A DNA stretch of 64,000 nucleotides from Candidatus Ruminimicrobiellum tauri. GTDB taxonomy: Bacteria; Elusimicrobiota; Endomicrobiia; Endomicrobiales; Endomicrobiaceae. Both the position numbers and the translations under genes were made by a program. Under the pieces are notes generated by a model. The model saw only the letters and a program-made list of their open reading frames with translations, made no database searches and was not told the DNA's origin. Below, in pieces: positions 3-26,985 of the stretch. The stretch is from NCBI GenBank assembly GCA_902792865.1, contig CADBBJ010000019.1, positions 2,012-66,011 of the forward strand, in the 5' to 3' direction. Each line of letters opens with the position of its first letter. Within the stretch, counting starts at the first letter, position 1.

Positions 3-1247
3 AAATCTGATAGCAAAAAGGAACAATATTTTTTTAATTTGAATAACGAATTTAGAAAAATTAGAAAATACCGTTTAAACGGCAATTGGAAAGAGTTCAC
101 GAAAGGGGAAAAAAATATTATTAATCTTTTGAAAAATTTTTATGATAATTATGCAGACTATTTAACAAAACTTGGTTTTAGTGAACAACAACTGCAAAAT
201 GTAGAAAAAATAATAGAAATTGATATATCGCTTTATAATGAGGATAAATATAATAATAAAGGCAAATATGGAAATATTATAAAAAAAAAGGATACAACAG
301 AAATAAATGCTAAGATTTTATCGGGAAAAAAAGAAGATAGTATTTATCTTATGACAGGAATGACAATTAATAAATCAAATAAATTAGTGGAAGATAACAT
401 CTGGAAGTTTGTTGAAAAGAGAAAAAAAGGAGATAATTTTAATCCTATTAGTTGGTATTACGATTCAAAAAATAAGAGTATTAAAAGGGATTCAAATTTA
501 AGTGAATTTTTTATATATATCCAAAACAATGGAACCATTCTTCAAAAAATAGCGGATGAAATTATTCCGATTGATGATACCAATATGCTTCAAAGATTTA
601 TATTGGGAGCATTAATGCAACAATTTATTCAAAATGTCAAGAAAAATAATAAGAATATCAAAAAAGTAGAAGACCCGTCAAAAAACCTATATAATAACTT
701 GACAAAAGAAAATATTAAAAGTTATTTCGGTAAAAAAGCATTTAAAAAAGTTTTTATGCAAATAATTGAAGCTGATAAGACTTTATTAGATTCCTTTTTT
801 GATTTTACAAAAGAATGTGAATTAATACAAACGGACAATAACAAGTTCAGTTTAAAGTTTAAAGGTTCGGGATTAATACTTGATTTAGAAACTGACGAAA
901 TGAACAAGATAAAAAATATCTTTAAAATTGAGGATTATTTTACATTTAAAGATAATAAATTAAATTTTAATGAAATTAAAATAAAAGAAACAAAAGAAAC
1001 AGATTATATAAATGTTATCCGTTATAAAGATACTGAGGTATTATCATTAAAAGGGAAAAATATTAGTATTGAAGATAACGAAAAAATAAAAAATGTTTAT
1101 TTGGATTTAGATAAAGGATGTATGGGGTATGATGATAAAAATGTTATACAAAAATTTTATAAAGATAATTATGAAGAATTAGAAAACTTTAAAACAGAAA
1201 ATGATATAGATTTAAATGATTTCTTTATTCATGTTAAGAAAAGTTAA
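3..1247 (+). CDS. 5'-partial paralog of the giant-protein family (conserved module B plus linker module L); probably continues upstream of the window
   Basis: The ORF track starts at a TTG at 39, but the frame is open back to nt 3. The residues before 39 (..QYFFNLNNEFRKIRKY) align with INYFNKFKKFRKNHTNYF in the 1268-4771 protein. Module B (SIYLMTGMTINKSNKLV...GTILQKIADEIIPIDD...FGKKAFKKVFMQIIEADKTLLDSFFDF) also occurs in the two larger ORFs. The C-terminus (KIKNVYLDLD...ENDIDLNDFFIHV) matches 10396-10550 of the giant ORF. Confidence 0.6.
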   Translation, partial: KSDSKKEQYFFNLNNEFRKIRKYRLNGNWKEFTKGEKNIINLLKNFYDNYADYLTKLGFSEQQLQNVEKIIEIDISLYNEDKYNNKGKYGNIIKKKDTTEINAKILSGKKEDSIYLMTGMTINKSNKLVEDNIWKFVEKRKKGDNFNPISWYYDSKNKSIKRDSNLSEFFIYIQNNGTILQKIADEIIPIDDTNMLQRFILGALMQQFIQNVKKNNKNIKKVEDPSKNLYNNLTKENIKSYFGKKAFKKVFMQIIEADKTLLDSFFDFTKECELIQTDNNKFSLKFKGSGLILDLETDEMNKIKNIFKIEDYFTFKDNKLNFNEIKIKETKETDYINVIRYKDTEVLSLKGKNISIEDNEKIKNVYLDLDKGCMGYDDKNVIQKFYKDNYEELENFKTENDIDLNDFFIHVKKS

Positions 1248-1267
1248 AGAAATATTTCTTTTCTAAT

Positions 1268-4200
1268 TTGGTTTCAATTCTTGCTGAAAGAAATTTGTAT
1301 GGTTTAAAAAAATTTCTTGATAGTAATGTTGTACATGCAGACTCCGGAAAGAGTGAGTTTTACTTCTATAAAAATTATTTTTTTAAACTTGAAAAAAATT
1401 TTTCTAAATTTCGTTTTACGGCACATGAATATGATGTTTATAATAAAATAAAAGAGAATGCAAATTTAAAGAATAATATCAACAAATATTATGGTTATTT
1501 TGATAAAGAAATTAATGGTGTAAAAAATAGAATTATTGTTAGCAAAAATTTACAAGAAGGCAAATTTATAGATTTATATGATTTTTTTTACAAGAAAAAC
1601 AAAAAGTTGTCAAAGGAAAAATGTGCCGATATCATAAAAAAAATAATTGCCATACAATCTGTTTTAAAAAACGAAAAAGGATTGTATAATTTTGATTTAA
1701 AACTACGAAACATAATGATAGATGAAGATCTTAATATAAAACTTATAGATTATGAGGGTATAGCACCTAAAGATAGTACCGTTTTTATGATCTCAGCTGA
1801 ATTACTTTTTAGCGAGATTTTCTTGGTGAATGAAGAGCTAAAATCTGATCTTTTAGATTATATACAATTTGATTTTATAATAAAATTGTTGAGTATGAAT
1901 GCTGGTACAAATATGAAAGAAGATGCTCGTAATTTATTATTGAGTCAGGGACAAAAGTTAGAAAGTCAAATAAACTACTTTAATAAATTTAAAAAATTTC
2001 GTAAAAATCATACTAACTATTTTAAACAAAACTTAGGTTTGAATGAAGCCTGGTTTGACAAAATAGAAAATATAATAAATACCGGTATAGAGCTTTCACA
2101 AAAAAGAAAATTTAATAACATTGTTTTAGTGGATGACAAAGAAAATAAAGAACTAAATAGTAAACTTTTACGAGAAAAATCTAATAGTATTTATATTATG
2201 AAAGATATTTTTATTAATGAACAAAATAAACTTGTGGAACGGGCTAATTATAAGTTTATTGAAAAGAGAAAAGAAGGAGATTATTTTAGATCAACAAGTT
2301 GGTATTATAATAGTGGTAGCTTTGCACTTAAATATGAGAGTAGTTTAGCAAACTTTATGTCAGAAATGCAGAAAAAAGGAACCGTTCTTCAAAAAATAGT
2401 AGATGAAGTTATTCCGATTGATGAGTCTAGTATATTTCAAAAAATTATATTGGGAACATTAATAGTAAAATTTATTAACACCGAAATAACAAAAGAAGGT
2501 TCATCTGTAAAATTTGAATCGTTATACAGTATATTGATTAAAGAGTCTAATATTGAACAATATTTCGGTAAAAAAGCATTTAAACAAGTTTTTATGCAAA
2601 TAATTGAAGCTGATAAGACTTTATTAGATTCCTTTTTTGATTTCAAAGAAGAATGTGAATTAATACAATTGGACAATGACAAATTTAAGTTAAAGTTTAA
2701 AGGTTCAAACTTAGAGCTTGATTTAGAAAAAGCAGAGGCAGACAATCTAATAAAGAAATTTCATCTTACCGAAGCAGATATACAAAAAAAATATACCAAC
2801 CCTGAAAGTGAAAACCAAAAGCCAAAGATTAATTCTAAAAACCCGATTGAAACAATAGCATTTAAACAAATAGGGGGAAATTATGAAAACTTCTTTGCAA
2901 TACAAATACCTGTTATAAGAGGTAAAGATAAAAAAATTCTAACGGATAAGAAAGGTAACAATATAAAACTTAAGTTAAATGTTGTTTATACAAAAGATAG
3001 TGGTGTTAGTTATCAGTTTATAGGGCAAAGTGAACAGATAGTAGAAACCTTGAAAAAAGAAGGTAAATTAACAGAAGATTTAAGCGAACTGAAATCGTTA
3101 GCAGATCTTTTATTTATAGACAGATATTGTACGGATAATATTGTAAGAGCAAAAATAGAAGGCGGAACAATTTTAACACAAGAACAAAAAAAGGCACTAT
3201 CCGATTATGTAAAAAGAGATAAAGACAATGAGTATTCTTATTTTAATGATAAGTTGATGGAAAAGGGAAGATATACATTTGCGGAAATAGAAGAGCTCTT
3301 GGCAGACACACCGAGCAGAACAAATACTTATGTGGGAGTAAAAGATGTAGAATTAAAGGTTACAAAAAATTTAGTGGAAGAGAATAAGATAGAACAAGAG
3401 ATACAAAGACTTAAAAGAGCGGGAATACACAAAGTGGTATTGTTAAAAGATAATATTTCTGATGAAGCATTGTGTTCAACGGTAATAAAAATAAGAAAAT
3501 TAGGATTACAACCGATAATAGGAATAACGGGAAATATGTTATCCGAAGAAAAGTCAACAGTTTATGATTTCATAGAAATAAGTAGCCGATTAAAGTCATT
3601 AGCAGGCTTTAGATTTATGGTTGATATAAATGATAATGTAAAAAATTTATTACAAGGAAAAGCCGACGATAAAGAGAGTATATTAGAATTAATTAAGAAA
3701 AGCGGAAAAGAAATATCCTATAAACCAAGTAATTTTGACAACCAGCAGGAGATGGAAAAAGCAGATAAATTATTTGAAGGAAAAGTTATATTTGTGGTAG
3801 AAGGGAAACAAATTATCAAAGACGAAACCGGAAAAGGAATAGAGTTCAAAAATGAAGATGTTTCCAATATTATTTCAAAGTTAGCGGGAGAAGGAAGATT
3901 TAGCTTATATTTTGATATGGATAAAGAAGATAATTTAAAGATGGCAAAGGAACTGGTAGAGAAAATATTCGGGAAAGGAGCGGAAGCAACTAAAACGATG
4001 ATATCGTTGGGAACAACATTTACGGCAAATATGTTTGCAGAATTATTTAAAAAGGATGCACCGACAAAATGTTTCAGTAATGCTTATGAACTGGGATATG
4101 GAACGGTATTTGGGGAAGTTTCACCGGAGAAAGTGGCAGGAGCATTCAAGGAATTGTTAACCGGTAGTATGACATATAGTAAGTTTAAGGAGTATATGGA

Positions 4201-4771
4201 CAAAAATAAAAATGAAGCTTTTACGGAGAACTTTAAAAATTTTGCTATAGGAGAAATAGAAGCCGAAATAAAAAAAGACGATAAACTTAAAGATGATGAC
4301 AAAACAGCAATGTTAAGACAGTATGTGATGGGATTTTTGATATCGTATATTGAAGATAAATTTAATGATTTTTATGAAACAAAAGGAGATATAAGACAAA
4401 TAGATATAAATGTAAAAAAACAAATAATGTATAGAATAATATGTTTATTACTGTCAGGTATTAATCCTACAACAATAAAGGTAAAGCTAAAGGAAGCTTT
4501 AAAGAAAAATACAAATAATCAATCACTGAAAGAATCAGTTAATAATACTAAAAAGAGTGATTTATTCGGCAAGATTTCAACAATGACGGCAAAATCGGAT
4601 AGTGTATTTGAGAGTGAGATGATTTATGCTAATGCAGATGCGGTTCCTGTAGATGTATACGACGATATAAATATATTGCTTGAAGACAGTTTAGTACCGA
4701 TAGCAGATATAGGTGAAACTGAAGAAGTTGATATGTTACAAGTTGTAAGGAGTATAGCTAAAAAGGCATAG
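1268..4771 (+). CDS. 1,167-aa giant-family paralog: protein-kinase-like domain plus conserved modules B, C and D of unknown function
   Basis: Long ORF collinear with the C-terminal ~1,300 aa of the 6267-14315 protein. Kinase-like motifs are FFKLEK, HEYDVYNKI, FDLKLRNIMID (D-x-K-x-x-N) and KLIDYEG. The frame is open from 1238, and the homologous sequence KKYFFSNLVSIL begins before the listed TTG, so the real start is uncertain. Confidence 0.8.
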   Translation: MVSILAERNLYGLKKFLDSNVVHADSGKSEFYFYKNYFFKLEKNFSKFRFTAHEYDVYNKIKENANLKNNINKYYGYFDKEINGVKNRIIVSKNLQEGKFIDLYDFFYKKNKKLSKEKCADIIKKIIAIQSVLKNEKGLYNFDLKLRNIMIDEDLNIKLIDYEGIAPKDSTVFMISAELLFSEIFLVNEELKSDLLDYIQFDFIIKLLSMNAGTNMKEDARNLLLSQGQKLESQINYFNKFKKFRKNHTNYFKQNLGLNEAWFDKIENIINTGIELSQKRKFNNIVLVDDKENKELNSKLLREKSNSIYIMKDIFINEQNKLVERANYKFIEKRKEGDYFRSTSWYYNSGSFALKYESSLANFMSEMQKKGTVLQKIVDEVIPIDESSIFQKIILGTLIVKFINTEITKEGSSVKFESLYSILIKESNIEQYFGKKAFKQVFMQIIEADKTLLDSFFDFKEECELIQLDNDKFKLKFKGSNLELDLEKAEADNLIKKFHLTEADIQKKYTNPESENQKPKINSKNPIETIAFKQIGGNYENFFAIQIPVIRGKDKKILTDKKGNNIKLKLNVVYTKDSGVSYQFIGQSEQIVETLKKEGKLTEDLSELKSLADLLFIDRYCTDNIVRAKIEGGTILTQEQKKALSDYVKRDKDNEYSYFNDKLMEKGRYTFAEIEELLADTPSRTNTYVGVKDVELKVTKNLVEENKIEQEIQRLKRAGIHKVVLLKDNISDEALCSTVIKIRKLGLQPIIGITGNMLSEEKSTVYDFIEISSRLKSLAGFRFMVDINDNVKNLLQGKADDKESILELIKKSGKEISYKPSNFDNQQEMEKADKLFEGKVIFVVEGKQIIKDETGKGIEFKNEDVSNIISKLAGEGRFSLYFDMDKEDNLKMAKELVEKIFGKGAEATKTMISLGTTFTANMFAELFKKDAPTKCFSNAYELGYGTVFGEVSPEKVAGAFKELLTGSMTYSKFKEYMDKNKNEAFTENFKNFAIGEIEAEIKKDDKLKDDDKTAMLRQYVMGFLISYIEDKFNDFYETKGDIRQIDINVKKQIMYRIICLLLSGINPTTIKVKLKEALKKNTNNQSLKESVNNTKKSDLFGKISTMTAKSDSVFESEMIYANADAVPVDVYDDINILLEDSLVPIADIGETEEVDMLQVVRSIAKKA

Positions 4772-5460: not shown

Positions 5461-5570
5461 ATCACATAGGAATGTTTTTTATCCGTTTTGTCTTTGTTGT
5501 TGTCGTTGTCGTTTGCCTTTGCCGTTTACCACTATATATTTAAAATTGTTTTTTGTATAATAATAGTATT

Positions 5571-6239
5571 ATGGGCAAAGGGTGTTTTTCTATAATTTCT
5601 GCAGTTTCCATAAAGCACAAGATACTGTCTTGTGTGTTGGCTTTTTTTGTTCTGATAAGTTCAACGAACTTGTTGAATTTTGAAGAATATAAAAAAACCA
5701 TTATGAAATCCGTAGAAGTATCAACAGAGTTAGTAGTAAGTCAGCTTTTTAATATATCTGCACTTCCTGTAAGTGCAATTTCAAAAATGTTTTTAGGTAC
5801 CCCTAAAATTACCGTAAAAAAAGAATGTACCCCGATACAGTTATCAAAAGAAACAACAACCGTAGAACAACAGACCGACAAAGCAAACGAAACGGTAGCA
5901 CCCGCAAATGAAACCGCAAACAATAAAGGAACCGATGCAAAAGATAATAATGTTATAAAAGCAACAATAGGATATTCAATGGTAGTCGATATATCGGACA
6001 TGAGAAAAGTTATAAAAAGTGAAGGAATAAAAGATTTGTTTGTTGCAGACAAACTGTTGGAAATAAATTTTTCTTTATGTAAAAAAGTAATAAGTGTTAT
6101 GTTTATAATGATGTTATTATTAGCAATATTACTTGCAAGAAAGAATGTAGGCAACAATAATATTATAAATAACAATAAAATAAAATATAAAAGATTAACT
6201 CAGCTTATTTTATGTAAGTTGGGTTATTTTTGTGTATAA
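5571..6239 (+). CDS. hypothetical small membrane protein directly upstream of the giant gene
   Basis: ORF track 5553..6239; the first ATG is at 5571. It has an N-terminal hydrophobic segment (ILSCVLAFFVLISS) and a C-terminal one (VISVMFIMMLLLAILLA), with a T/N/A-rich low-complexity middle. I recognise no family. Confidence 0.45.
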   Translation: MGKGCFSIISAVSIKHKILSCVLAFFVLISSTNLLNFEEYKKTIMKSVEVSTELVVSQLFNISALPVSAISKMFLGTPKITVKKECTPIQLSKETTTVEQQTDKANETVAPANETANNKGTDAKDNNVIKATIGYSMVVDISDMRKVIKSEGIKDLFVADKLLEINFSLCKKVISVMFIMMLLLAILLARKNVGNNNIINNNKIKYKRLTQLILCKLGYFCV

Positions 6240-6266: not shown

Positions 6267-9200
6267 ATGAATATGTGTAAAAACATATTTAACATGTTAG
6301 TGAAAAAAGAAACACTAAATCAATCATATTTAAAATTAAAAGATTGGCTGTTATCATTTAATTTGGTAAAGATAACAGCGGTAATAGTATTGAATTGTTT
6401 CTTGCTGACGGCAGTATACGGACAAGCGGTGGTAGGAGTATTGGAGAACCAAAGAGCAACGGAACAATTCAAACAAATATTTGAGGATTTTGATGTTCTG
6501 TACAATTACGGAAAAATATCATCAGCCAAATATAAGGGAAGTGATAAGGTAGTTATAAACATACAGGATTTGCATAACAATGCGGAAGTACAAAAGAATA
6601 TAAACAACATAATATCATTGTTTGACGAAAAGTACGGGGTAAATAACATATATTTGGTAGGAGCTTACGGACAGGTAAGTACAAAGTGGTTAACGGCACC
6701 CAAAGATAAAAAAATAAGAGAAAAAGTAATAGAAACATTATTGGAATCCGGGAAATTAACCGGAGCGGAATATTATTCTGCAGTGAAGAATAAAACGGAG
6801 ATAATAAAAGGGTTAGAAAAGAAAGAAGAATATTTTGACAACTTAAAAAGGTTTGAAAGTATAATAGAAAATTCGCCCGTAATAACAATGCATATAGAAG
6901 CAATAAAAGAAACGGTAAAGAAATTGCAGTCAAAATATTATAATAAGCAACAAAAAGAAATAGAAAAATTATCCCAAAAATATGAATTAGAGCAAATATC
7001 GGCAGACGAATATTTTGAAAAGATGGAAAAATATGCAAAAAATTATGCAATGAATATAGACAAATATAAAAATCTGTCCGGGTATATGGATTTAATGGAC
7101 AGAAAGAAAAATCTTGATTATGAAAAGATAAACAAAGAATTGCAGACTTTTGTAGCGACATTAAAAGAAAGAATACCGTACAATGTATATAAAGCATTGA
7201 CAGATGCGACAAAAAACTTTTTGGAGATAGACAAATTGTACGGCTATATAATAAGGTTATCCAAACAATACAATTTGGAGTTATCGGGTAATTTCAAAGA
7301 GTTAGAAAGATTTTTTGAATATATAGAGTTAAGCCAGACAATAAATCCGTTTGAATTAATGAAAGAAAAACAAAATTTTAAAGACGAACTAAACGACAAA
7401 TTTTCGGTAAACAAGGTAGAACAGGAAGTAATATTTTTAAGTAATTTTGTGGGATATTATGAAGATTATTTAACAGGGAAAATAACAGCCCCGAATTACG
7501 AATATTATAAATCCAACATAGAAAAATTTAAATATATATGGATAAAATACATAGATAACAGAGAAATAGTAGCATTAGAGAAGTACGAAAAGATATCGGA
7601 TGAATTCTATAAAATAAACATAGCGAGAAACAAGTATTTTATAGAAAATATGAAAGAAGTAATGGATGCAAAGAAACTGGGAGTGGAAGTAAAAGGAAAA
7701 GATGAAATACAAAAGAGCATGAACTCGTTAAAGAAATCCAAAGAGATATACATAACGGTAACGGGAGGCTTTCATACCCAAGAGATGTCTAAAATGTTAT
7801 CCAAAGCAGGGATAACAAACATAATAATAACCCCTAGTGTAACAACGGATACAAAAGAATCGGACGAGATACATTATAATTTAGCCAAAGAGCAGGCAAA
7901 AATAGCATTTCAGACATTGGCAACATTGCCACCATCACAGCAGGAAGTTCAAGAAAGAGTAAAAGAATTTTTGAGTGCTATACAAACAGCGGGATTACAA
8001 GATATAAAAGCAGAAGATTTGCAAGAAATCATTGATGAAGTTCTTGACCGAATAAATGTTGATCGTCGGAAAAATAATGAGGCTAATGTATCGGTAACCA
8101 TAAATTCCGTTACCGGTGCAGAAGTAACGGTAGGTGATAAAACTTATGAAGTTAAAGCTGATAACAACCAACAGAAAGTTAATAAAGAAAACAACTTATA
8201 CAAATCAAAAAGTGTATTAGGTTTAATGAAAGTGTCAATAGCAATGTCAATACTAACTTTGATGCTTATACCGATATCAGGTGTAACAGGAAGTTTTCCT
8301 ATAGTACCGATAATATTATTTGGTCTGTCATTTGGAAAAGACGGATTTGAATGGAAACAGTATTCTTTATTGAACGAAGGTGCACAAAAGATAAGTTCTG
8401 ATGCAGAAATAAAAAGTAACATAGCAGAATCTCAAAGTGCATTCTCTGACGATAACGATTCAAAAGAACTAAAAAACAGGATAAATAAAAAATTTGCGGA
8501 TTTAGGATTTGAAGAGAGCAATATAAAAAATATAGAGATAGGTGATTTTACCGAAAAAAATGAAATGAAAAAGGATGAATTTGCCAATGTTGATGTTCGT
8601 AAGCAAAGATTAAAAACAGGTTTTTTACATATCAATTACAGATTAATACAAAAAATATTTATGGACGGGACAAACTTTAAAAATGATATTTGGAACGATG
8701 TATATTTTTCAATGTTTATAGCCCATGAATTAAGACATAGAAATCATCCGAGATGGCATGAAGTTGCAGTAAGTTTTTTTGATATATTTTATTTTATAAC
8801 GGTATTTGTAAGAGAGTTAAAAAAAAGGATAAGAGAGTTAATAAAAAGAATGTTTGTTAAAAAAGAAGAAAAAGAAGTAGAAGAAATAATCGCAAAAGAA
8901 TTAAAGGAATGGCAGTCTTCACTAAAGAACTTAAAACAAAAATATAACTCAAAATCAATAAATGATAACGGAGAAATAAAAGACAATGACTTGAAAGTAG
9001 CAACGGAAAGAAAAACAGTCCGTTCCAATGCAATGCAAGCCGGCAGTTTACAAAATACATTAGCAGTTAGTAATGCTCAATCTGCAAACAAGACTAACAA
9101 CAATGAAAAAGAAGTAAAACCTGTAATAATTGAAACTAATCCTTTGACTGAAACAATAATAGATGAATTTGATAATAAAAAGATAGTAAGTTCCAAATAT

Positions 9201-12200
9201 GAACAGAACGAAAATGGGATGAGAAATATTATAATTTATTTTAAAGACGGTGATGTAGAGAAGAGTGTTAAACTTTTAACCAAAGACCAAAATCTAATAA
9301 AACCTGAAGATAATACGAATATATCGGTGGCTGATTGGATAATTAGTAAAACAGCATATTTAGAAACAAAAATTAATTTTAATTCCGACCGAACAGATAT
9401 AATAAATTATAAAAAAGAATTGACTTCACTTAACGGTGCAAAAATATCGGGTATTGAATATGATAAAAATAATAATAGAATTATAATTTATCATAGAAAA
9501 GAAAAGTCTCATATCAAAATGGCTTACTTCTCTCTTTTTAAAGCTCTTACATCCGAACAAAAATCAAATTTGGAAAGTCTTAATAACAGTGATAATATAA
9601 TCGGAAATAATTTGGTTGATTGGATACATAAAAATAAAGATATTTATGGAATAAGGATAGAAGAGAACGGTATACGAAGTTTAACGGAATTGGCAGAACT
9701 TGTCGGAGATGCAAAAATAAAAAATATTGAATGTTATAGAGAAGACAAAACCAAGAAAATTAAGATTGAGATTTCTTATGTTAAAGAACAAGACGGACTG
9801 CCACAAGTTGTTATTTTTTACGGTCCCACGGATAAAGAAGGCAAGGAATTTGAAAAATTGAAAAAATATAATGTAGATTTACCTAAAAAGCCTGATATAG
9901 GCAGACCGATAGTTTCTTGGATACTCGGTAACCGAAAATCTTTAAAAATAGATATAGAAAAGATAGATGAAATTCGGATAACAGGTAAAAATAAACTTGA
10001 TAGTTTTATTAATCTTAGCGGAAAGTCAAATATAGAAGGTATAGAATATTATCAGGATAATAATGAGAAAAAGATTATAGCTTATTACAAAGAAAAAAAT
10101 ACTGCAACCGGAAATAAACGGATAAAAGGTGTTGTTTTTTCTGTTTCCAAAGATCTTACGGCAGAACAAAAAGCAAAATTGTATACGGAAACAAAAAATA
10201 TAAATTCGTTAAGTGATTTGATAACAAATATCATGATAAATTATGGAATAAAATTAAAAAAACAATTGAAAATAAACCGACATGGACAAATTTTTACATT
10301 TAAAAACAATAAGGTAAACAAAACAAATTATGATATTTCTTATCAAAATATTAAGTTGTTATCAATAAAAGATAACAAAATTACTATTGAAAATCCCGAT
10401 AAAATAAAAAATGTTTATTTAAATTTAGAAACCGAAGATATGGCATATTATTATGATGATAGAATACAGGATTTTTATAACAAGAATTCAAAATCTTTAA
10501 AAAATTTTATAACAGAGAACGATATTGATACAACCGATTTTTTCATTAGAGTTGCATTAAATAAGGCGATTTTAGATTTTGTAAATGAGGATATAGAAAA
10601 TGTGATTGTATTATCTGACAAAAATAAAGGAAAACTAAAGGAATATTTCTTTTCTAATTTGATTTCTATACTTGATAAAGGAAATACAAATAATTTTATA
10701 AAGAATTTTAGTAAGATTGATTATAAACAACAAAAGTTAAGAAATCCGTTTTATACCTACAATAATTATTTTTTTAAATTCAGCAATAATATAAAAGAAT
10801 TCAGGCTTTTAAAAAATGAATATGATTTTTATAATAAAATAAAAGGAGATAAAGAATTAAATAAAAAAACAGGAAAAAATATTAATGAATATTATGGTTG
10901 TTTTGATAAAGAAATTAATAATAAAAAATATAAATTTGTTGTTAGTAAAAATTTAACAAAAGATAACAGATTTGAGAGTTTAGATAAATCTGTTAAGAAT
11001 AATAATTTTACAAAGAAACAATGTACTGAAATTATAAAACAAGTATTAAAAATACACTCTGATTTAGAAGAAAAGGGATTGTACAATTATGATTTAAACC
11101 CGCAAAGCATAATGATAGATAAAGATCTTAACATAAAACTTATAGATTGTGATGGTATTGTACCCAAAGACTGTACCGGTTTTGTATCTTCATATATATT
11201 ACCTTATGATTATTTCTTGGCGGATGAAAATCTTCGTTCCTATTGGTATGATTATGTAAAATTTACTTTTGTGGTAAATGTTTTTTTTGATATAAAAAAT
11301 CTTGATAAACAGATGGCAACAGACTTCAAAAGACTGCAATACATAATTGACTATATGGAAAAAAATAAAAATAAATTTGCAAGACGAAAAAACAGAAGAA
11401 CATTGGCTCGGTATGGTCGGTATCTTAGAATATTTAGTGAAATTTCCGATAAATATGCTAACTTTTTTGAACAATTTAAGCTTGATAAAACCCGTTTAGA
11501 TAAAATAAAAGATATAGTAAAAACAAGTGTAACTCTTTTTCTGCATCCGGATGAGAGTTATAACAAAATTTCTATATTGGAACTACAAGAAATAGACAGT
11601 AATCTTTTAATGGAAAAAGAAAAAGATTCTGTTTATGTAATCAAAAATATTGTTATTGATAAATCAAATAAATTAGTGAGAGTATATAACGATAAATTTA
11701 TTAAAAAAAGAGAAAAAGGAGATTGGGTTAAACCGGATAGTTGGTATTATAATTTAGATTCAAAAAAGATTGTATTCTATCCGATTTTATATAAATTTAC
11801 GGAATATGTACAGAAGTATGGAACCATTCTTCAAAAAATAGTAGACGAATCTATTCCGATTGATGATACTGATATATTTCAAAAATTAGTATTGGGAACA
11901 TTAATAAAAAATTTTATTGATGAAAATACGGATAGCAATATTAAAGATGACAACAAACAAAATGAATTTTTATACAAAAAATTGAAGACCGCCGGTAATA
12001 TTAAAAAATATTTCGGTAAAGATGCATTTAAAAAAGTTTTTATGCAAATAATAGAAGCAGATTCGGAATTATTAAAATCCTTTTTTAATTTCAACGAAGA
12101 ATGTAAGTTAATAAAAGACAAAAAGGATGATAAAAAATTTTATCTGAATTTTAGTTCAGGATTAAAACTTGAGTTAAGTAACAAAGATTTGAATAAAATA

Positions 12201-14315
12201 ACAGATAAATTTCCTAAAGTTAAAGTAGATGAAATTCCCAAAGAAAAAGAAAATATACCGCCATCTCCGCCGAAATCAGTAAAAACAGAGAAACAAATTA
12301 AAACAGATTCTCATAAAGTTGAAGATAAATACATGAAAGTATATCAAAAGATAAAATTCGTTAGTCCTATTGAAAATATTAAGTTTAGTCAGATAAGCGA
12401 AAATTATCAAAAACTGTTTGCAATACAAATACCTGTTGTAAGAGATAAATACGGTAAAATTCTTACGGATGATAAAAACAACAAGATAAAACTTAAATTA
12501 AATGTTGTTTATACAAAGGAAAACGGTATTAGCTATTATTTTACAGGGCAAAGTGAAGGAACGGTAAAACAATTAATAAGGAACGGTAAACTATCGGAAG
12601 ATTTAAAAGAACTGAAACCGTTAGTTGATCTTTTGTTTATAGACAGATATTCTGCGGATAAGAATTTAAGAGAAGAAATAGAAAACAAAAATCTTTTATG
12701 GAAAGAACAGATAAAAGCACTGTCTGATTATGCAAAAAAAGATGAAGATATGAATTATTATGAGTTTAAATGTAAGTTGATAGGACAGGGTTACACATTT
12801 ACCGAAATAGAACAAATATTGTCAGATATTCCCGGCAGAACAAATACTTATGTCGGATTAAAGGATGTAGAATTAAAACTCACAAATCAGTTATTGGATG
12901 AGAGTAAGATAATAAGAGAGATACAAAGACTTAAAAGAGCAGGAATACACAAAGTGGTATTGCTGAAAGATAAAGATGTTTCAAATAAAGAGTTGTATAT
13001 AATAATAGAAATAATAAGAAAATCAGGTTTACAGCCGATAATAGGATTGACAAGAGAAATGTTGTCCGTTAGTGCGGATGAAAAGTCAAAAGTCTATGAC
13101 TTTATAGAAGAAAGTATAAAAATTAAAGCATTATCAGGATTTAGATTTATGTTTGATATTGACGAAAAAGTGGGTAAACTTTTAAATTATAAAAAAGATA
13201 TTTATGAAATGATTAGCATATTGGATTTAATAATGAATATCGGGAAAGAAATATCTTATAAGCCAAGTAATTTTAATAATGAAAAAATAGATATTGCAGA
13301 TGAATTATTTAAAGGAAAAGTTATATATGTAGTAGCCGGAAAACAGTTTACAAGAAATAACGAAGAAGATTTGGTTATCAATAGAACTGAAGAAAATTCT
13401 CTTAAGAAATTAGCGGGAGAAGGAAGACTTAGTTTATATTTTGATATTGATAAAGATAATTTAAAGGTAGCGAAAGCACTGATAGAGAGAATATTTGGAA
13501 AAGGAACGGATGCAATCAAAACGATGATATCGTTGGGAACAACATTTACGGCAAATATGTTTGCAGGATTATTTAAAAAAGATTCTGCATCAAAGGGTTT
13601 TAGTAATGCTTATGAAATCGGATATGAACCGATATTTGGGGATATTTCCCCGGATATAGTTGCAGTAGTATTCAAGGATGTATTAACCGATAATATGAAC
13701 TTTAATGAGTTTTTAGAGTATGAACAAAGAGAGAAAGAACAAAAATCTAAAAAAACTATAGCTTTTACAAAAGAATTTGATAAACTTGTTATTGAAGATA
13801 TAAAAGAAGTAAGCAAATATAATATTTCAGAGAAAGAACAAACAGCAATGTTAAAGCAATATGTAATAGGATTTTTAATGTCATATATTGAAACTCATTT
13901 TGATGAGTTGTATGAAGTAAAACGATCGGATAAAATGATAGATATAAAACAAATGGATATAAATGTAAGGAATCAAATAATGTATAGGATATTACTTTTA
14001 TTACTGAAAGAGATGATTTTTAACAATATAAAACAATATGTAAGTATTAAAGATAGTCAAAAAGAAGGTTCAATGAAACAATCGGTTAATAATATCAAAA
14101 ATAACGAGTTATCCGTAAATATTTCAAAAATGTTAATGAAAACAAATATAAATATTAATAGTGTGCTTAAAAACAATATAGATACGATAGCTATATGTAA
14201 TGATATAAATGTGTTACTTGAATACAGTTTATTACCGGTAACTACAAACGAATTATCAAAAACAGGAAATTTAATAAAAGATATTAAAAATATAGTAAGA
14301 AAAGCATCTTATTAA
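6267..14315 (+). CDS. 2,682-aa giant multidomain membrane-anchored protein (possible ChaN/Tiki-like domain, TM pair, HExxH, ~105-aa repeats, degenerate kinase-like domain, modules B/C/D)
   Basis: Uninterrupted 8,049-nt ORF preceded by aagggga. It has an N-terminal hydrophobic anchor (ITAVIVLNCFLLTAVYG) and an HELRH motif at 8724-8738. The kinase-like motif is YDLNPQSIMID...KLIDCDG at 11088-11156. The C-terminal half is collinear with ORFs 3-1247 plus 1268-4771. Confidence 0.9.
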   Translation: MNMCKNIFNMLVKKETLNQSYLKLKDWLLSFNLVKITAVIVLNCFLLTAVYGQAVVGVLENQRATEQFKQIFEDFDVLYNYGKISSAKYKGSDKVVINIQDLHNNAEVQKNINNIISLFDEKYGVNNIYLVGAYGQVSTKWLTAPKDKKIREKVIETLLESGKLTGAEYYSAVKNKTEIIKGLEKKEEYFDNLKRFESIIENSPVITMHIEAIKETVKKLQSKYYNKQQKEIEKLSQKYELEQISADEYFEKMEKYAKNYAMNIDKYKNLSGYMDLMDRKKNLDYEKINKELQTFVATLKERIPYNVYKALTDATKNFLEIDKLYGYIIRLSKQYNLELSGNFKELERFFEYIELSQTINPFELMKEKQNFKDELNDKFSVNKVEQEVIFLSNFVGYYEDYLTGKITAPNYEYYKSNIEKFKYIWIKYIDNREIVALEKYEKISDEFYKINIARNKYFIENMKEVMDAKKLGVEVKGKDEIQKSMNSLKKSKEIYITVTGGFHTQEMSKMLSKAGITNIIITPSVTTDTKESDEIHYNLAKEQAKIAFQTLATLPPSQQEVQERVKEFLSAIQTAGLQDIKAEDLQEIIDEVLDRINVDRRKNNEANVSVTINSVTGAEVTVGDKTYEVKADNNQQKVNKENNLYKSKSVLGLMKVSIAMSILTLMLIPISGVTGSFPIVPIILFGLSFGKDGFEWKQYSLLNEGAQKISSDAEIKSNIAESQSAFSDDNDSKELKNRINKKFADLGFEESNIKNIEIGDFTEKNEMKKDEFANVDVRKQRLKTGFLHINYRLIQKIFMDGTNFKNDIWNDVYFSMFIAHELRHRNHPRWHEVAVSFFDIFYFITVFVRELKKRIRELIKRMFVKKEEKEVEEIIAKELKEWQSSLKNLKQKYNSKSINDNGEIKDNDLKVATERKTVRSNAMQAGSLQNTLAVSNAQSANKTNNNEKEVKPVIIETNPLTETIIDEFDNKKIVSSKYEQNENGMRNIIIYFKDGDVEKSVKLLTKDQNLIKPEDNTNISVADWIISKTAYLETKINFNSDRTDIINYKKELTSLNGAKISGIEYDKNNNRIIIYHRKEKSHIKMAYFSLFKALTSEQKSNLESLNNSDNIIGNNLVDWIHKNKDIYGIRIEENGIRSLTELAELVGDAKIKNIECYREDKTKKIKIEISYVKEQDGLPQVVIFYGPTDKEGKEFEKLKKYNVDLPKKPDIGRPIVSWILGNRKSLKIDIEKIDEIRITGKNKLDSFINLSGKSNIEGIEYYQDNNEKKIIAYYKEKNTATGNKRIKGVVFSVSKDLTAEQKAKLYTETKNINSLSDLITNIMINYGIKLKKQLKINRHGQIFTFKNNKVNKTNYDISYQNIKLLSIKDNKITIENPDKIKNVYLNLETEDMAYYYDDRIQDFYNKNSKSLKNFITENDIDTTDFFIRVALNKAILDFVNEDIENVIVLSDKNKGKLKEYFFSNLISILDKGNTNNFIKNFSKIDYKQQKLRNPFYTYNNYFFKFSNNIKEFRLLKNEYDFYNKIKGDKELNKKTGKNINEYYGCFDKEINNKKYKFVVSKNLTKDNRFESLDKSVKNNNFTKKQCTEIIKQVLKIHSDLEEKGLYNYDLNPQSIMIDKDLNIKLIDCDGIVPKDCTGFVSSYILPYDYFLADENLRSYWYDYVKFTFVVNVFFDIKNLDKQMATDFKRLQYIIDYMEKNKNKFARRKNRRTLARYGRYLRIFSEISDKYANFFEQFKLDKTRLDKIKDIVKTSVTLFLHPDESYNKISILELQEIDSNLLMEKEKDSVYVIKNIVIDKSNKLVRVYNDKFIKKREKGDWVKPDSWYYNLDSKKIVFYPILYKFTEYVQKYGTILQKIVDESIPIDDTDIFQKLVLGTLIKNFIDENTDSNIKDDNKQNEFLYKKLKTAGNIKKYFGKDAFKKVFMQIIEADSELLKSFFNFNEECKLIKDKKDDKKFYLNFSSGLKLELSNKDLNKITDKFPKVKVDEIPKEKENIPPSPPKSVKTEKQIKTDSHKVEDKYMKVYQKIKFVSPIENIKFSQISENYQKLFAIQIPVVRDKYGKILTDDKNNKIKLKLNVVYTKENGISYYFTGQSEGTVKQLIRNGKLSEDLKELKPLVDLLFIDRYSADKNLREEIENKNLLWKEQIKALSDYAKKDEDMNYYEFKCKLIGQGYTFTEIEQILSDIPGRTNTYVGLKDVELKLTNQLLDESKIIREIQRLKRAGIHKVVLLKDKDVSNKELYIIIEIIRKSGLQPIIGLTREMLSVSADEKSKVYDFIEESIKIKALSGFRFMFDIDEKVGKLLNYKKDIYEMISILDLIMNIGKEISYKPSNFNNEKIDIADELFKGKVIYVVAGKQFTRNNEEDLVINRTEENSLKKLAGEGRLSLYFDIDKDNLKVAKALIERIFGKGTDAIKTMISLGTTFTANMFAGLFKKDSASKGFSNAYEIGYEPIFGDISPDIVAVVFKDVLTDNMNFNEFLEYEQREKEQKSKKTIAFTKEFDKLVIEDIKEVSKYNISEKEQTAMLKQYVIGFLMSYIETHFDELYEVKRSDKMIDIKQMDINVRNQIMYRILLLLLKEMIFNNIKQYVSIKDSQKEGSMKQSVNNIKNNELSVNISKMLMKTNININSVLKNNIDTIAICNDINVLLEYSLLPVTTNELSKTGNLIKDIKNIVRKASY

Positions 14316-25434: not shown

Positions 25435-26985
25435 ATGAAACAGATTAAAATATTTGATACGACTTTAAGAGATGGCAGTCAGGGGGCAGGTATATCGTTT
25501 TCGGTTGAAGATAAATTGAAAATAGCATCTGCCCTTGATACCTTTGGTATAGCATATATTGAAGGCGGTTGGCCAGGTTCTAATCCGAAAGATGAAGAAT
25601 TTTTTAAACTTGCAAAAAATAAATTTAAAAATTCTAAACTTGTGGCATTTAGTTCAACAAGAAAACCGAACACAAAAATTCAAGATGATAATCAAATAAA
25701 AAAAATAATTTCTTCAGATACAAAAGTTGCAACAATTTTTGGGAAATCTTGGGATTTACATGTACAGGTTGCACTTAAAACAACTCTTAAAGAAAATCTT
25801 AAAATGATATTTGAAACAATAGCATATTTGAAAACAAAAAAATTTGAAGTTATATATGATGCGGAACACTATTTTGACGGATACATTCATAATAAAATTT
25901 ATACTTTTGAAACAATAAAATCGGCAGTAGATGCCGGTGCGGATTATATTTGTTTGTGTGAGACTAACGGTGGAGTTTTACCGTCATATATAGAAAAAAC
26001 AGTTAAAGAAACAATTAAAGAGTTTCCTAATGTAAAGTTTGGTATTCATGCACATAACGATTGTGATTGTGCCGTGGCAAATTCAATAATTGCGGTTCAA
26101 TCAGGGTGTCAACTTGTTCAGGGTACAATAAACGGTATAGGTGAAAGGTGCGGAAATGCAAATTTGTGTTCTATTATCCCGTCACTGCAACTAAAAGGGA
26201 AATATCATTGTGTTCCCGTACAAAATTTAAAAAATATCACAAATCTTTCCAGATATATTGATGAAATAGCAAATTTGACTTCCAATGACAGTATGCCTTA
26301 TGTCGGTAAAAATGCTTTTTCGCATAAAGCGGGAGTGCATGTTTCGGCAATAAAAAAAGATTCTAAGACTTATGAACATATAAATCCTAAACATGTCGGA
26401 AACAAAAGAAATATTTTAGTAAGCGATTTGTCGGGAAAAAGCAACATAGTTTCAAAAGCAGATGAACTTGCAATAGATTTAGAAAAAGATGTACAAGGTA
26501 TAATTAATATAGTTAAAGAAAAAGAAAATAACGGTTATCAATACGAAAATGCAGACGGTTCGTTTTATATTCTTACAAAAAAGCTGGAAAAAACATATAA
26601 AAATTTTTTTACATTGAAAAATTATAGAGTTAGTGTAGAAAAAAACAAAGACGGTTCTATTGTATCGGAAGCAACCGTTAAACTTGATGTTAACGGAAAA
26701 GAAGAACATACCGTTGCAGAAGGCGGTGGTCCTGTTGATGCATTAGATAAATGTTTAAGAAAAGCACTAATAAAATTCTATCCGGAGATAAAATCCGTTA
26801 TACTTACGGATTTTAAAGTAAGAGTTATTAATTCAGATGCGAATACGGCAGCAAAAGTTAGGGTTCTAATAGAATCTAAAGATAAAAAATATAGTTGGGG
26901 TACAATAGGGGTTAGTGATAATATTATAGATGCCTGTTGGCAAGCTCTTTCGGATTCTGTTGAGTATAAACTTTTAAAAAAATAA
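25435..26985 (+). CDS. cimA: (R)-citramalate synthase / 2-isopropylmalate synthase family enzyme
   Basis: IFDTTLRDGSQGAGISFSVEDKLKIASALDTFGIAYIEGGWPGSNPKDEEFF is the CimA-type N-terminus. The protein is 516 aa with a LeuA-dimer-like C-terminus. Confidence 0.75.
   Translation: MKQIKIFDTTLRDGSQGAGISFSVEDKLKIASALDTFGIAYIEGGWPGSNPKDEEFFKLAKNKFKNSKLVAFSSTRKPNTKIQDDNQIKKIISSDTKVATIFGKSWDLHVQVALKTTLKENLKMIFETIAYLKTKKFEVIYDAEHYFDGYIHNKIYTFETIKSAVDAGADYICLCETNGGVLPSYIEKTVKETIKEFPNVKFGIHAHNDCDCAVANSIIAVQSGCQLVQGTINGIGERCGNANLCSIIPSLQLKGKYHCVPVQNLKNITNLSRYIDEIANLTSNDSMPYVGKNAFSHKAGVHVSAIKKDSKTYEHINPKHVGNKRNILVSDLSGKSNIVSKADELAIDLEKDVQGIINIVKEKENNGYQYENADGSFYILTKKLEKTYKNFFTLKNYRVSVEKNKDGSIVSEATVKLDVNGKEEHTVAEGGGPVDALDKCLRKALIKFYPEIKSVILTDFKVRVINSDANTAAKVRVLIESKDKKYSWGTIGVSDNIIDACWQALSDSVEYKLLKK

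Follow-up and report, generated by a model that had tools for sequence, protein, structure and literature searches.

The window analysed here is a 64,000-nucleotide (nt) stretch of the forward strand of contig CADBBJ010000019.1 from Candidatus Ruminimicrobiellum tauri, corresponding to C19:2012-66011 of a genome of 2.12 Mb in 101 contigs. Close to its left edge, at positions 1268-4771 of the forward strand, lies an open reading frame (ORF) of 1167 amino acids (aa) with a TTG start, which contains a kinase-like module (K module), followed by a B module and by a C-terminal region that it has in common with a 2682-aa protein encoded at 6267-14315. The product of this ORF differs from the ENA protein P0003 at the N-terminus and is otherwise 100% identical to it. 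The full K module as modelled extends over 1241-2105 on the same strand and comprises an N-terminal helix, a 4-5-stranded N-lobe with helix alphaC, a C-lobe through alphaF and three more helices; its start is located 27 nt 5' of the TTG in the same frame, right behind a stop codon at 1235-1237. The preceding ORF on this strand (3-1247) is open to the edge of the window and to the start of the contig, has its own K module to the left of the window and continues with a B and an L module. Based on profile searches, structure prediction and residue conservation, we propose that nt about 1241-2105 encode a compact, highly divergent Hanks-type Ser/Thr kinase module that would be catalytically active, a statement that we hold to be moderately probable when taken in full. 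The K module offers a first clue to the function of a family of giant proteins that otherwise has no annotation and makes up roughly 3% of the genome of this rumen Elusimicrobium.

Protein kinase fold of the K module

The Pfam profile Pkinase (PF00069) matched the 1167-aa ORF at residues 59-162 with an E-value of 7.3e-7 and a score of 29.3 bits (up to 30.5 bits in a scan per family member), the gathering cut-off being 31.7 bits. In the per-member scan the same profile was matched by 17 of 18 aligned paralogous modules, and seven of the 17 genomic copies that match it passed the cut-off. One of these is the upstream neighbour, the module of ORF 3-1247, which has the canonical DLKPEN and IDYEG motifs and reaches 33.9 bits at C19:1432-1866. 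The alignment used throughout (A1) includes 18 of the 20 paralogous modules that were found in the genome with tblastn. When the sequence of the 1167-aa ORF was searched against the PDB with phmmer, protein kinases were retrieved exclusively, and the family profile derived from A1 detected 323 PDB chains at E<=0.01, with DAPK2 as the best match (6.7e-9). Each of the 60 chains listed for this profile search is either a protein kinase or the kinase domain of the lanthionine synthetase ThurKC. In a library of 1.84 billion representative proteins, the A1 profile gave 780 matches at E<=1e-3, of which six were below 1e-30, and a full Pkinase domain was present in each of the seven top non-family matches that were scanned.

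The comparison of A1 with an alignment of 16 canonical kinases by hhalign resulted in a probability of 99.5% and an E-value of 3.2e-22 over 141 columns, which span alphaC, the catalytic loop, the DFG motif and the activation segment up to the Asp of the alphaF motif DxWSxG. The N-lobe register was fixed by hmmsearch alignments to canonical kinases of the representative library. With the two Hanks kinases of the genome itself, used as single sequences, hhalign gave a short match to the catalytic loop only.

AlphaFold 2 (AF2) models were obtained for residues 1-226 of the ORF, with a predicted local distance difference test score (pLDDT) of 79.3 and a predicted template modelling score (pTM) of 0.78, and for window positions 1241-2275, with a pLDDT of 80.1 and a pTM of 0.81. 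Both models have a helix at the N-terminus, a small beta-sheet accompanied by a single helix, and a C-lobe built of helices; in the model of 1241-2275 helices are placed at residues 2-15, 63-71, 125-145, 198-220, 223-234, 240-265 and 269-288. Foldseek searches of the PDB with the two models gave 1100 and 1657 matches at E<=1e-3, and all 50 of the matches listed are kinases, among them phosphorylase kinase, SRPK1, LCK, ThurKC and PknB at the top as well as VRK1 and PKR, with query-based TM-scores (TMq) of up to 0.61. A bilobal protein-kinase fold is hence predicted with high confidence for residues 1-290 of ORF 1268-4771, and there is little doubt that the K-module family is a domain of the eukaryotic protein kinase (ePK) fold with the canonical Hanks-type Ser/Thr kinases as its nearest family. 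The preliminary description, made from the DNA alone, had proposed a kinase-like fold with an intact catalytic signature and had named a protein-kinase-like profile match together with a bilobal predicted fold as the check on it, and both were found here.

It was also considered whether the kinase motifs are a chance product of an AT-rich, Lys/Asn-rich sequence, as this sequence is prone to low complexity (23% G+C) and its single-sequence Pfam score stays below the gathering threshold. The profile-profile match (99.5%, E 3e-22), the listed PDB and Foldseek matches, which are all kinases, and the 780 library matches, with full Pkinase domains in the seven top non-family ones, speak against this explanation, which is refuted by the PDB profile search, Foldseek and hhalign and which we rate as extremely improbable. 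Precomputed weak Pfam matches on public copies already hint at a kinase-like domain. The fold itself is well known, and the K module is a divergent variant of it and not a new enzyme class.

Catalytic residues and proposed activity

The beta3 Lys, the alphaC Glu, the D-x-K-x-x-N loop and the metal-binding Asp that had been noted previously are all present, at K40, E54, D143/K145/N148 and D161, and they are described here with their positions on the forward strand. K40 corresponds to the Lys of the VAIK motif and is part of N-Y-F-F-K (1373-1387), in which N36, Y37 and K40 are invariant in the 18 paralogs; in the hmmsearch alignments it is paired with the VAIK-type Lys of the canonical kinases P0140 and P0075. 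E54 belongs to H-E-Y-D (1424-1435), for which the alphaC region was aligned by hhalign, and residues 53-61 are helical in the model of residues 1-226. The catalytic loop N-F-D-L-K-L-R-N (1688-1711), which is aligned to HxDxKPEN of kinases, contains the putative catalytic base D143 as well as K145 and N148. The equivalent of the DFG motif is I-D-Y-E-G (1745-1759), aligned to the DFG of kinases and containing the predicted metal-binding D161. Helix alphaF starts at D-L-L-D-Y-I-Q-F (1847-1870), with an Asp that hhalign aligned to that of DxWSxG, and it was modelled at residues 189-210 and 198-220 in the two models, respectively.

Among the 18 modules, K40 and D143 are conserved in all copies, E54 and D161 in 17, and K145 and N148 in 16. 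All six positions are retained in 15 of the 18 copies, the paralogs being otherwise 35-50% identical. The family consensus of the catalytic loop is Y-N-Y-D-L-K-P-E-N, and the consensus YNYDLKPENIMIN...IKLIDYEG is a near-match to HxDLKPENIM...IKLIDFG of CAMK-like Ser/Thr kinases. The copy in ORF 1268-4771 reads DLKLRN, and its changes from P to L and from E to R were also found in other paralogs. K145 and N148 are lost jointly and in two copies only, namely in the module of the 2682-aa protein (10632-11340, forward strand), which is degenerate with DLNPQS and IDCDG, and in the module on contig C86 (DLSPKK, IIN-DD), where D161 is lost too. Judged from the alignment, this joint loss is as expected of a constrained family in which a copy occasionally decays into a pseudokinase, and the catalytic signature is by the same measure intact in the copy of ORF 1268-4771 and under constraint across the family.

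To describe the evolutionary regime, K modules were compared genome-wide (for example C19:1360-2058 with C74:1417-2127) and the ratio of non-synonymous to synonymous substitutions (dN/dS) was calculated according to Nei and Gojobori. The ratio was 0.9-1.5 in the four closest pairs (proportion of synonymous differences, pS, 0.07-0.20), with 1.47 for the closest one, and 0.4-0.85 in the deeper pairs listed; these absolute values are approximate because of gene conversion and AT-bias. As a control, a single-copy gene of the window (25435-26985) was compared with five congeners using the same script and gave a dN/dS of 0.08, so that constraint on the modules as a whole is lower by a factor of about ten than on an ordinary gene, or they are diversifying. 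The conserved blocks of A1 are beta3, alphaC, beta4/5, alphaE, the catalytic loop, DFG and alphaF. We read this as a catalytic core that appears to be frozen within a fast-changing shell.

On the basis of these residues we lean towards the K module being an active Ser/Thr phosphotransferase. Mg-ATP would be bound between the lobes, where K40 and E54 would position the alpha- and beta-phosphates and N148 and D161 would hold the metals, while D143 would deprotonate the Ser/Thr hydroxyl and K145 would contact the gamma-phosphate. The HRD motif is replaced by YN(F/Y)D and DFG by DYE; as there is no His-Arg before the catalytic Asp, the module is to be classed as a non-RD kinase. Because the loop is of this non-RD type (YNFD for HRD) and the activation segment is short, the module would probably be constitutively competent and not be switched on by phosphorylation of the activation loop. 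The nucleotide pocket is atypical, with no glycine-rich loop, with Phe for the Ala of VAIK and with DYE for DFG. A Lys at the second position after the catalytic Asp (D+2) is a hallmark of Ser/Thr-specific ePKs, and the DLKPEN-type loop with its D+2 Lys therefore favours Ser/Thr of a protein or peptide as the substrate class, which narrows the earlier view that the substrate (protein, lipid or sugar) was open. The likeliest candidate substrates would be the neighbouring modules of the giant protein itself or a partner protein.

Several observations weigh against an active kinase. A glycine-rich loop of the GxGxxG type was not found, as there are 0-1 Gly before the beta-hairpin and no conservation among the paralogs. 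The glycine-rich-like loop of the preliminary description is thus not borne out: SGKSEF occupies its position in the copy of ORF 1268-4771, with one Gly, in a column that is not conserved and in a part of the model with a low pLDDT of about 58-67. In the VAIK equivalent the Ala is replaced by Phe (NYFFK), a bulky residue, and either the missing loop or this Phe could impair or change nucleotide binding. The K module of ORF 1268-4771 is just under the Pfam gathering threshold, and all matches to the Pkinase profile stop at about profile position 142-145, the DFG motif, with the C-lobe beyond it unmatched. The Glu of the APE motif and the Arg between alphaH and alphaI were not identifiable in the K module, and after alphaF the AF2 model has three helices with a pLDDT of 90-95 in place of the usual alphaG-alphaI region. 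Decaying copies would also show a dN/dS near 1 in the closest pairs. No match to the PP2C-type phosphatase profile PF13672 (PP2C_2) was found in the genome.

Part of this list is also what a pseudokinase or scaffold would show, whose fold would be retained because binding or assembly in the giant protein depends on it, and whose conserved polar residues would bind nucleotide or stabilise the structure but transfer no phosphate. The absence of the glycine-rich loop, the Phe at the Ala of VAIK, the module-wide dN/dS near 1 (0.6-1.5 overall), the two clearly degenerate paralogs and the copy with an in-frame stop in one relative are all consistent with such a role. Yet the six catalytic positions are held in 15 of the 18 copies at 35-50% identity, the losses cluster in few copies, and there is no obvious structural reason for the fixation of the D+2 Lys and the Asn, so that we consider a pseudokinase or scaffold rather unlikely. 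If the modules are inactive, they would represent a large bacterial pseudokinase expansion. If the modules are active, they would be a measure of how far an ePK can do without its canonical ATP-binding apparatus, and tandem kinase arrays would be documented for bacteria. The K module is in either case a structural variant new to the kinase fold, with no glycine-rich loop, Phe for the Ala of VAIK, DYE, no RD pair and a re-modelled C-lobe, combined with strongly constrained catalytic residues.

The preliminary description had also placed the module near the Kdo/WaaP, RIO and APH/choline-kinase-like families. These share with the K module a compact build, an I-D-x-E/D-like context of the Asp and an activation loop that is short or absent. 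In Pfam scans of the 18 copies, RIO1 was matched by one copy (E 0.003) and Kdo, APH and choline kinase by none at E<=0.01, as against 17 copies for Pkinase, and membership in these families was rejected. The catalytic loop of the K module has the D+2 Lys of Ser/Thr ePKs, a residue that the loops of RIO, Kdo/WaaP and APH/choline kinases (ChoK) are not known to have. The atypical pocket, lacking the glycine-rich loop and having Phe in VAIK and DYE for DFG, and the weak RIO1 match of the one paralog would suit a kinase fold that acts on a small molecule (a sugar or a lipid) or that carries out a different ATP-dependent reaction, for which SelO and SidJ, with AMPylation and glutamylation, are examples. 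The best matches are, however, uniformly Ser/Thr protein kinases, the D-L-K-P-E-N loop with its D+2 Lys is a signature of Ser/Thr ePKs, and none of the Kdo, APH and choline kinase profiles was matched in the 18 copies, which makes such a chemistry or substrate very unlikely.

Frame break at the start of the 1167-aa ORF

The frame break between ORF 3-1247 and ORF 1268-4771 (1228-1267, forward strand) is located inside the conserved segment ...DFFIHV[ALNKAILDF...KE]KLKKYFFSNL. Other copies have this segment in a single frame and are continuous through ...DFFIxVALNKAILDF...KEKLKEYFFSNL. The family-invariant K-L-K-x-Y-F-F, with which the N-terminal helix of the module starts, was found at 1241-1261, in frame but 5' of the TTG and directly after the stop at 1235-1237. 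The ENA scaffold L001 (3618-3688) is 100% identical to the window in the flanks of this junction, has 67 nt extra and 5 nt (ATTCA) fewer, and both versions of the junction are out of frame. If the two versions are joined, they would yield one continuous frame as in the other paralogs. The ALNKAILDF...KLKxYFF segment is also split by a small frameshift in a further family member, at L010 3600-3665 (ENA ERZ1061328 scaffold_51396), which is from another sample. Additionally, there is a further break at L010 396/407, and overlapping ORFs are present at L009 1652-1671. Frame breaks seem to be frequent in the K family, which would be either contingency-like behaviour or an assembly problem.

Two further points against a functional kinase concern this particular copy. 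No obvious Shine-Dalgarno-like sequence was found before the TTG of ORF 1268-4771, and the N-terminus of the ORF cuts the conserved helix, so a working protein may not be made from this copy. The junction at 1228-1267 may be a mis-assembled repeat or a site prone to real lesions, and for the 1167-aa protein there are two possible readings, the C-terminal part of a larger multi-kinase protein or the product of a truncated gene. If a continuous frame ...DFFIHVALNKAILDF...KEKLKKYFFSNL across the junction is true, the module would lie within a larger multi-kinase protein, with the 1167-aa ORF as an artefact.

That ORF 1268-4771 is a dead fragment, with a real frameshift or deletion at 1228-1267 and with motifs that are intact on account of the lesion being recent, is a possibility of some weight which we nevertheless place short of probable. 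It concerns the state of a single copy and is compatible with any function of the family. The start of the ORF inside a family-invariant helix, with KLKxYFF stranded 5' of it after a stop, agrees with such a lesion, and so do the second assembly, which is likewise out of frame at this junction, and the family member of a different sample that is frameshifted in the same segment. On the other hand, the flanks are 100% identical in the two assemblies but the lesions differ, which is more typical of a mis-assembled repeat because the segment is common to about 20 paralogs. In addition, 1167 codons are still open in DNA of 23-28% G+C, and coupled re-initiation would be possible over the short distance from the stop at 1245-1247 to the TTG at 1268.

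Tandem K modules and their relation to known kinase systems

About 20 K modules were detected in the genome with tblastn, on contigs C19, C73, C64, C76, C84, C90, C3, C74, C82, C86 and C91. It had been stated before that the domain is embedded in a giant protein, and giant proteins were indeed found, with the domain being not a lone one but one of about 20 tandem modules. The distance from one K module to the next is 1.9-2.2 kb (about 630-730 aa) on C19, C73, C64, C76, C84 and C90. The repeat unit is K-B-L, and three K modules are present in a single open frame of 1850 codons on C73; each repeat unit seems, as far as its residues tell, to have a working Ser/Thr kinase active site. Most of the copies are on short contigs that each form one open frame from end to end, and these contigs are therefore taken as fragmented giant genes. 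K-family frames stay open for 1000-3000 codons despite a G+C content of 23-30%, and the K-bearing contigs sum to roughly 60 kb, about 3% of the genome.

The K family was absent in all 13 congeners searched and nearly so in the 1.84 billion representative proteins, and among 40 related genomes it was found in just one other genus (RUG240), with two copies. The second of these, L003 (G017:C229:1437-2156), which reads DLKTDN, is interrupted by an in-frame TAA and is probably a pseudogene. The GTDB family of the genome under study is that of 'uncultured Elusimicrobia bacterium RUG240', and the related proteins originate in ENA metagenome assemblies, at least one of them under a rumen-study record (STEW19). 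The named outside matches of the K profile are vertebrate NRK- and PIM-like kinases. These matches do not show a horizontal transfer from a eukaryote, as the representative library is dominated by eukaryotic kinases.

The Hanks-type Ser/Thr kinases (PF00069) are the closest known system, with DAPK1/2/3, phosphorylase kinase gamma and TNIK/MINK as the best-scoring members and PknB among the Foldseek matches. The bilobal fold, the beta3 Lys, the alphaC Glu and the D-L-K-P-E-N-type loop are common to both, as are the metal-binding Asp followed by a Gly two residues on, alphaE, and alphaF with its Asp. The K module differs from these kinases in that it has neither GxGxxG nor a recognisable APE, has Phe in VAIK, YN(F/Y)D and DYE, packs three different helices after alphaF and is arranged in tandem repeats within giant proteins. 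Against the K profile, the two Hanks kinases of the genome scored 6.2 and 1.5 bits, whereas the best outside matches scored 42-50 bits. These canonical kinases are encoded at C1:5374-6165 and C32:1646-2263, and their loops read DISPGN and DISYTN, with Ser at the usual position of the Lys. About 3 kb from the C1 kinase a double-FHA protein is encoded at C1:9305-9841.

The kinase domain of class III/IV lanthionine synthetases (LanKC/LanL; ThurKC, PDB 8sap/8sam) is, like the K module, a bacterial ePK-like domain inside a larger multidomain protein. Lanthionine synthetases were matched in NCBIfam (E 7e-5), in the PDB profile search (5.5e-6) and by Foldseek (rank 3-8), and the similarity of the K module to LanKC is confined to the core from alphaD to DFG. 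An assignment as class III lanthionine synthetase (NF038151) was rejected, with 21.4 bits as against 575 and a match to residues 118-171 only, and no lyase or cyclase domain was found in the 1167-aa and 2682-aa proteins with Pfam and NCBIfam.

The 2682-aa paralog has four hydrophobic segments, the last of which is followed by the strongly basic stretch RELKKRIRELIKR. Based on the positive-inside rule, the giant proteins would probably be anchored in the membrane, and their K modules would face the cytoplasm; the basic stretch after the last hydrophobic segment suggests that the K-bearing C-terminal part is cytoplasmic, where ATP would be available. Giant membrane-anchored multidomain proteins of uncultured bacteria resemble the K family in having very long, repetitive genes that are fragmented in assemblies and in occurring in host-associated or predatory lineages (West-Roberts et al. 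2023, bioRxiv 10.1101/2023.11.21.568195). The passages found in this preprint name histidine-kinase-like ATPase and pyruvate phosphate dikinase domains in such proteins, and they contain no mention of ePK-type modules or of giant kinase arrays in Elusimicrobia (bioRxiv 10.1101/2023.11.21.568195).

A far-reaching interpretation of the family is that of lineage-specific 'poly-kinase' giant proteins, with tandem arrays of at least three competent ePK-like modules per protein and about 20 per genome, expanded in one rumen Elusimicrobium species. Their surface would evolve at a dN/dS near 1 around a frozen active site, with frequent frame breaks, and their nearest outside relatives would be eukaryotic CAMK/STE20/PIM-like kinases and not the Hanks kinases of the genome itself. 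Taken with all its parts this interpretation is speculative, and we hold it to be distinctly unlikely. It leaves open an acquisition from a eukaryote (rumen protist or host) as well as a role at the interface with host, protist or phage as a rapidly diversifying contingency family.

For the remainder of the locus, phmmer retrieved nothing meaningful from the PDB with residues 301-1167 of the 1167-aa ORF, and the B, C and D modules and the small neighbouring ORFs gave nothing credible in Pfam or NCBIfam. PADLOC gave no evidence of a defence system, its sole match being a weak and generic one to the PD-T4-6 model (E 0.004). Between the genes for the 1167-aa and 2682-aa proteins there is a small ORF of 228 aa (5553-6239), with hydrophobic segments at residues 18-43 and 173-200 and without a family match. 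In the 2682-aa protein, an HExxH-like AHELRHRNH was observed at 8724-8738 of the window (residues 820-824), just before the fourth hydrophobic segment (832-849) and RELKKRIRELIKR; from its sequence, this site could be membrane-proximal and metalloprotease-like.

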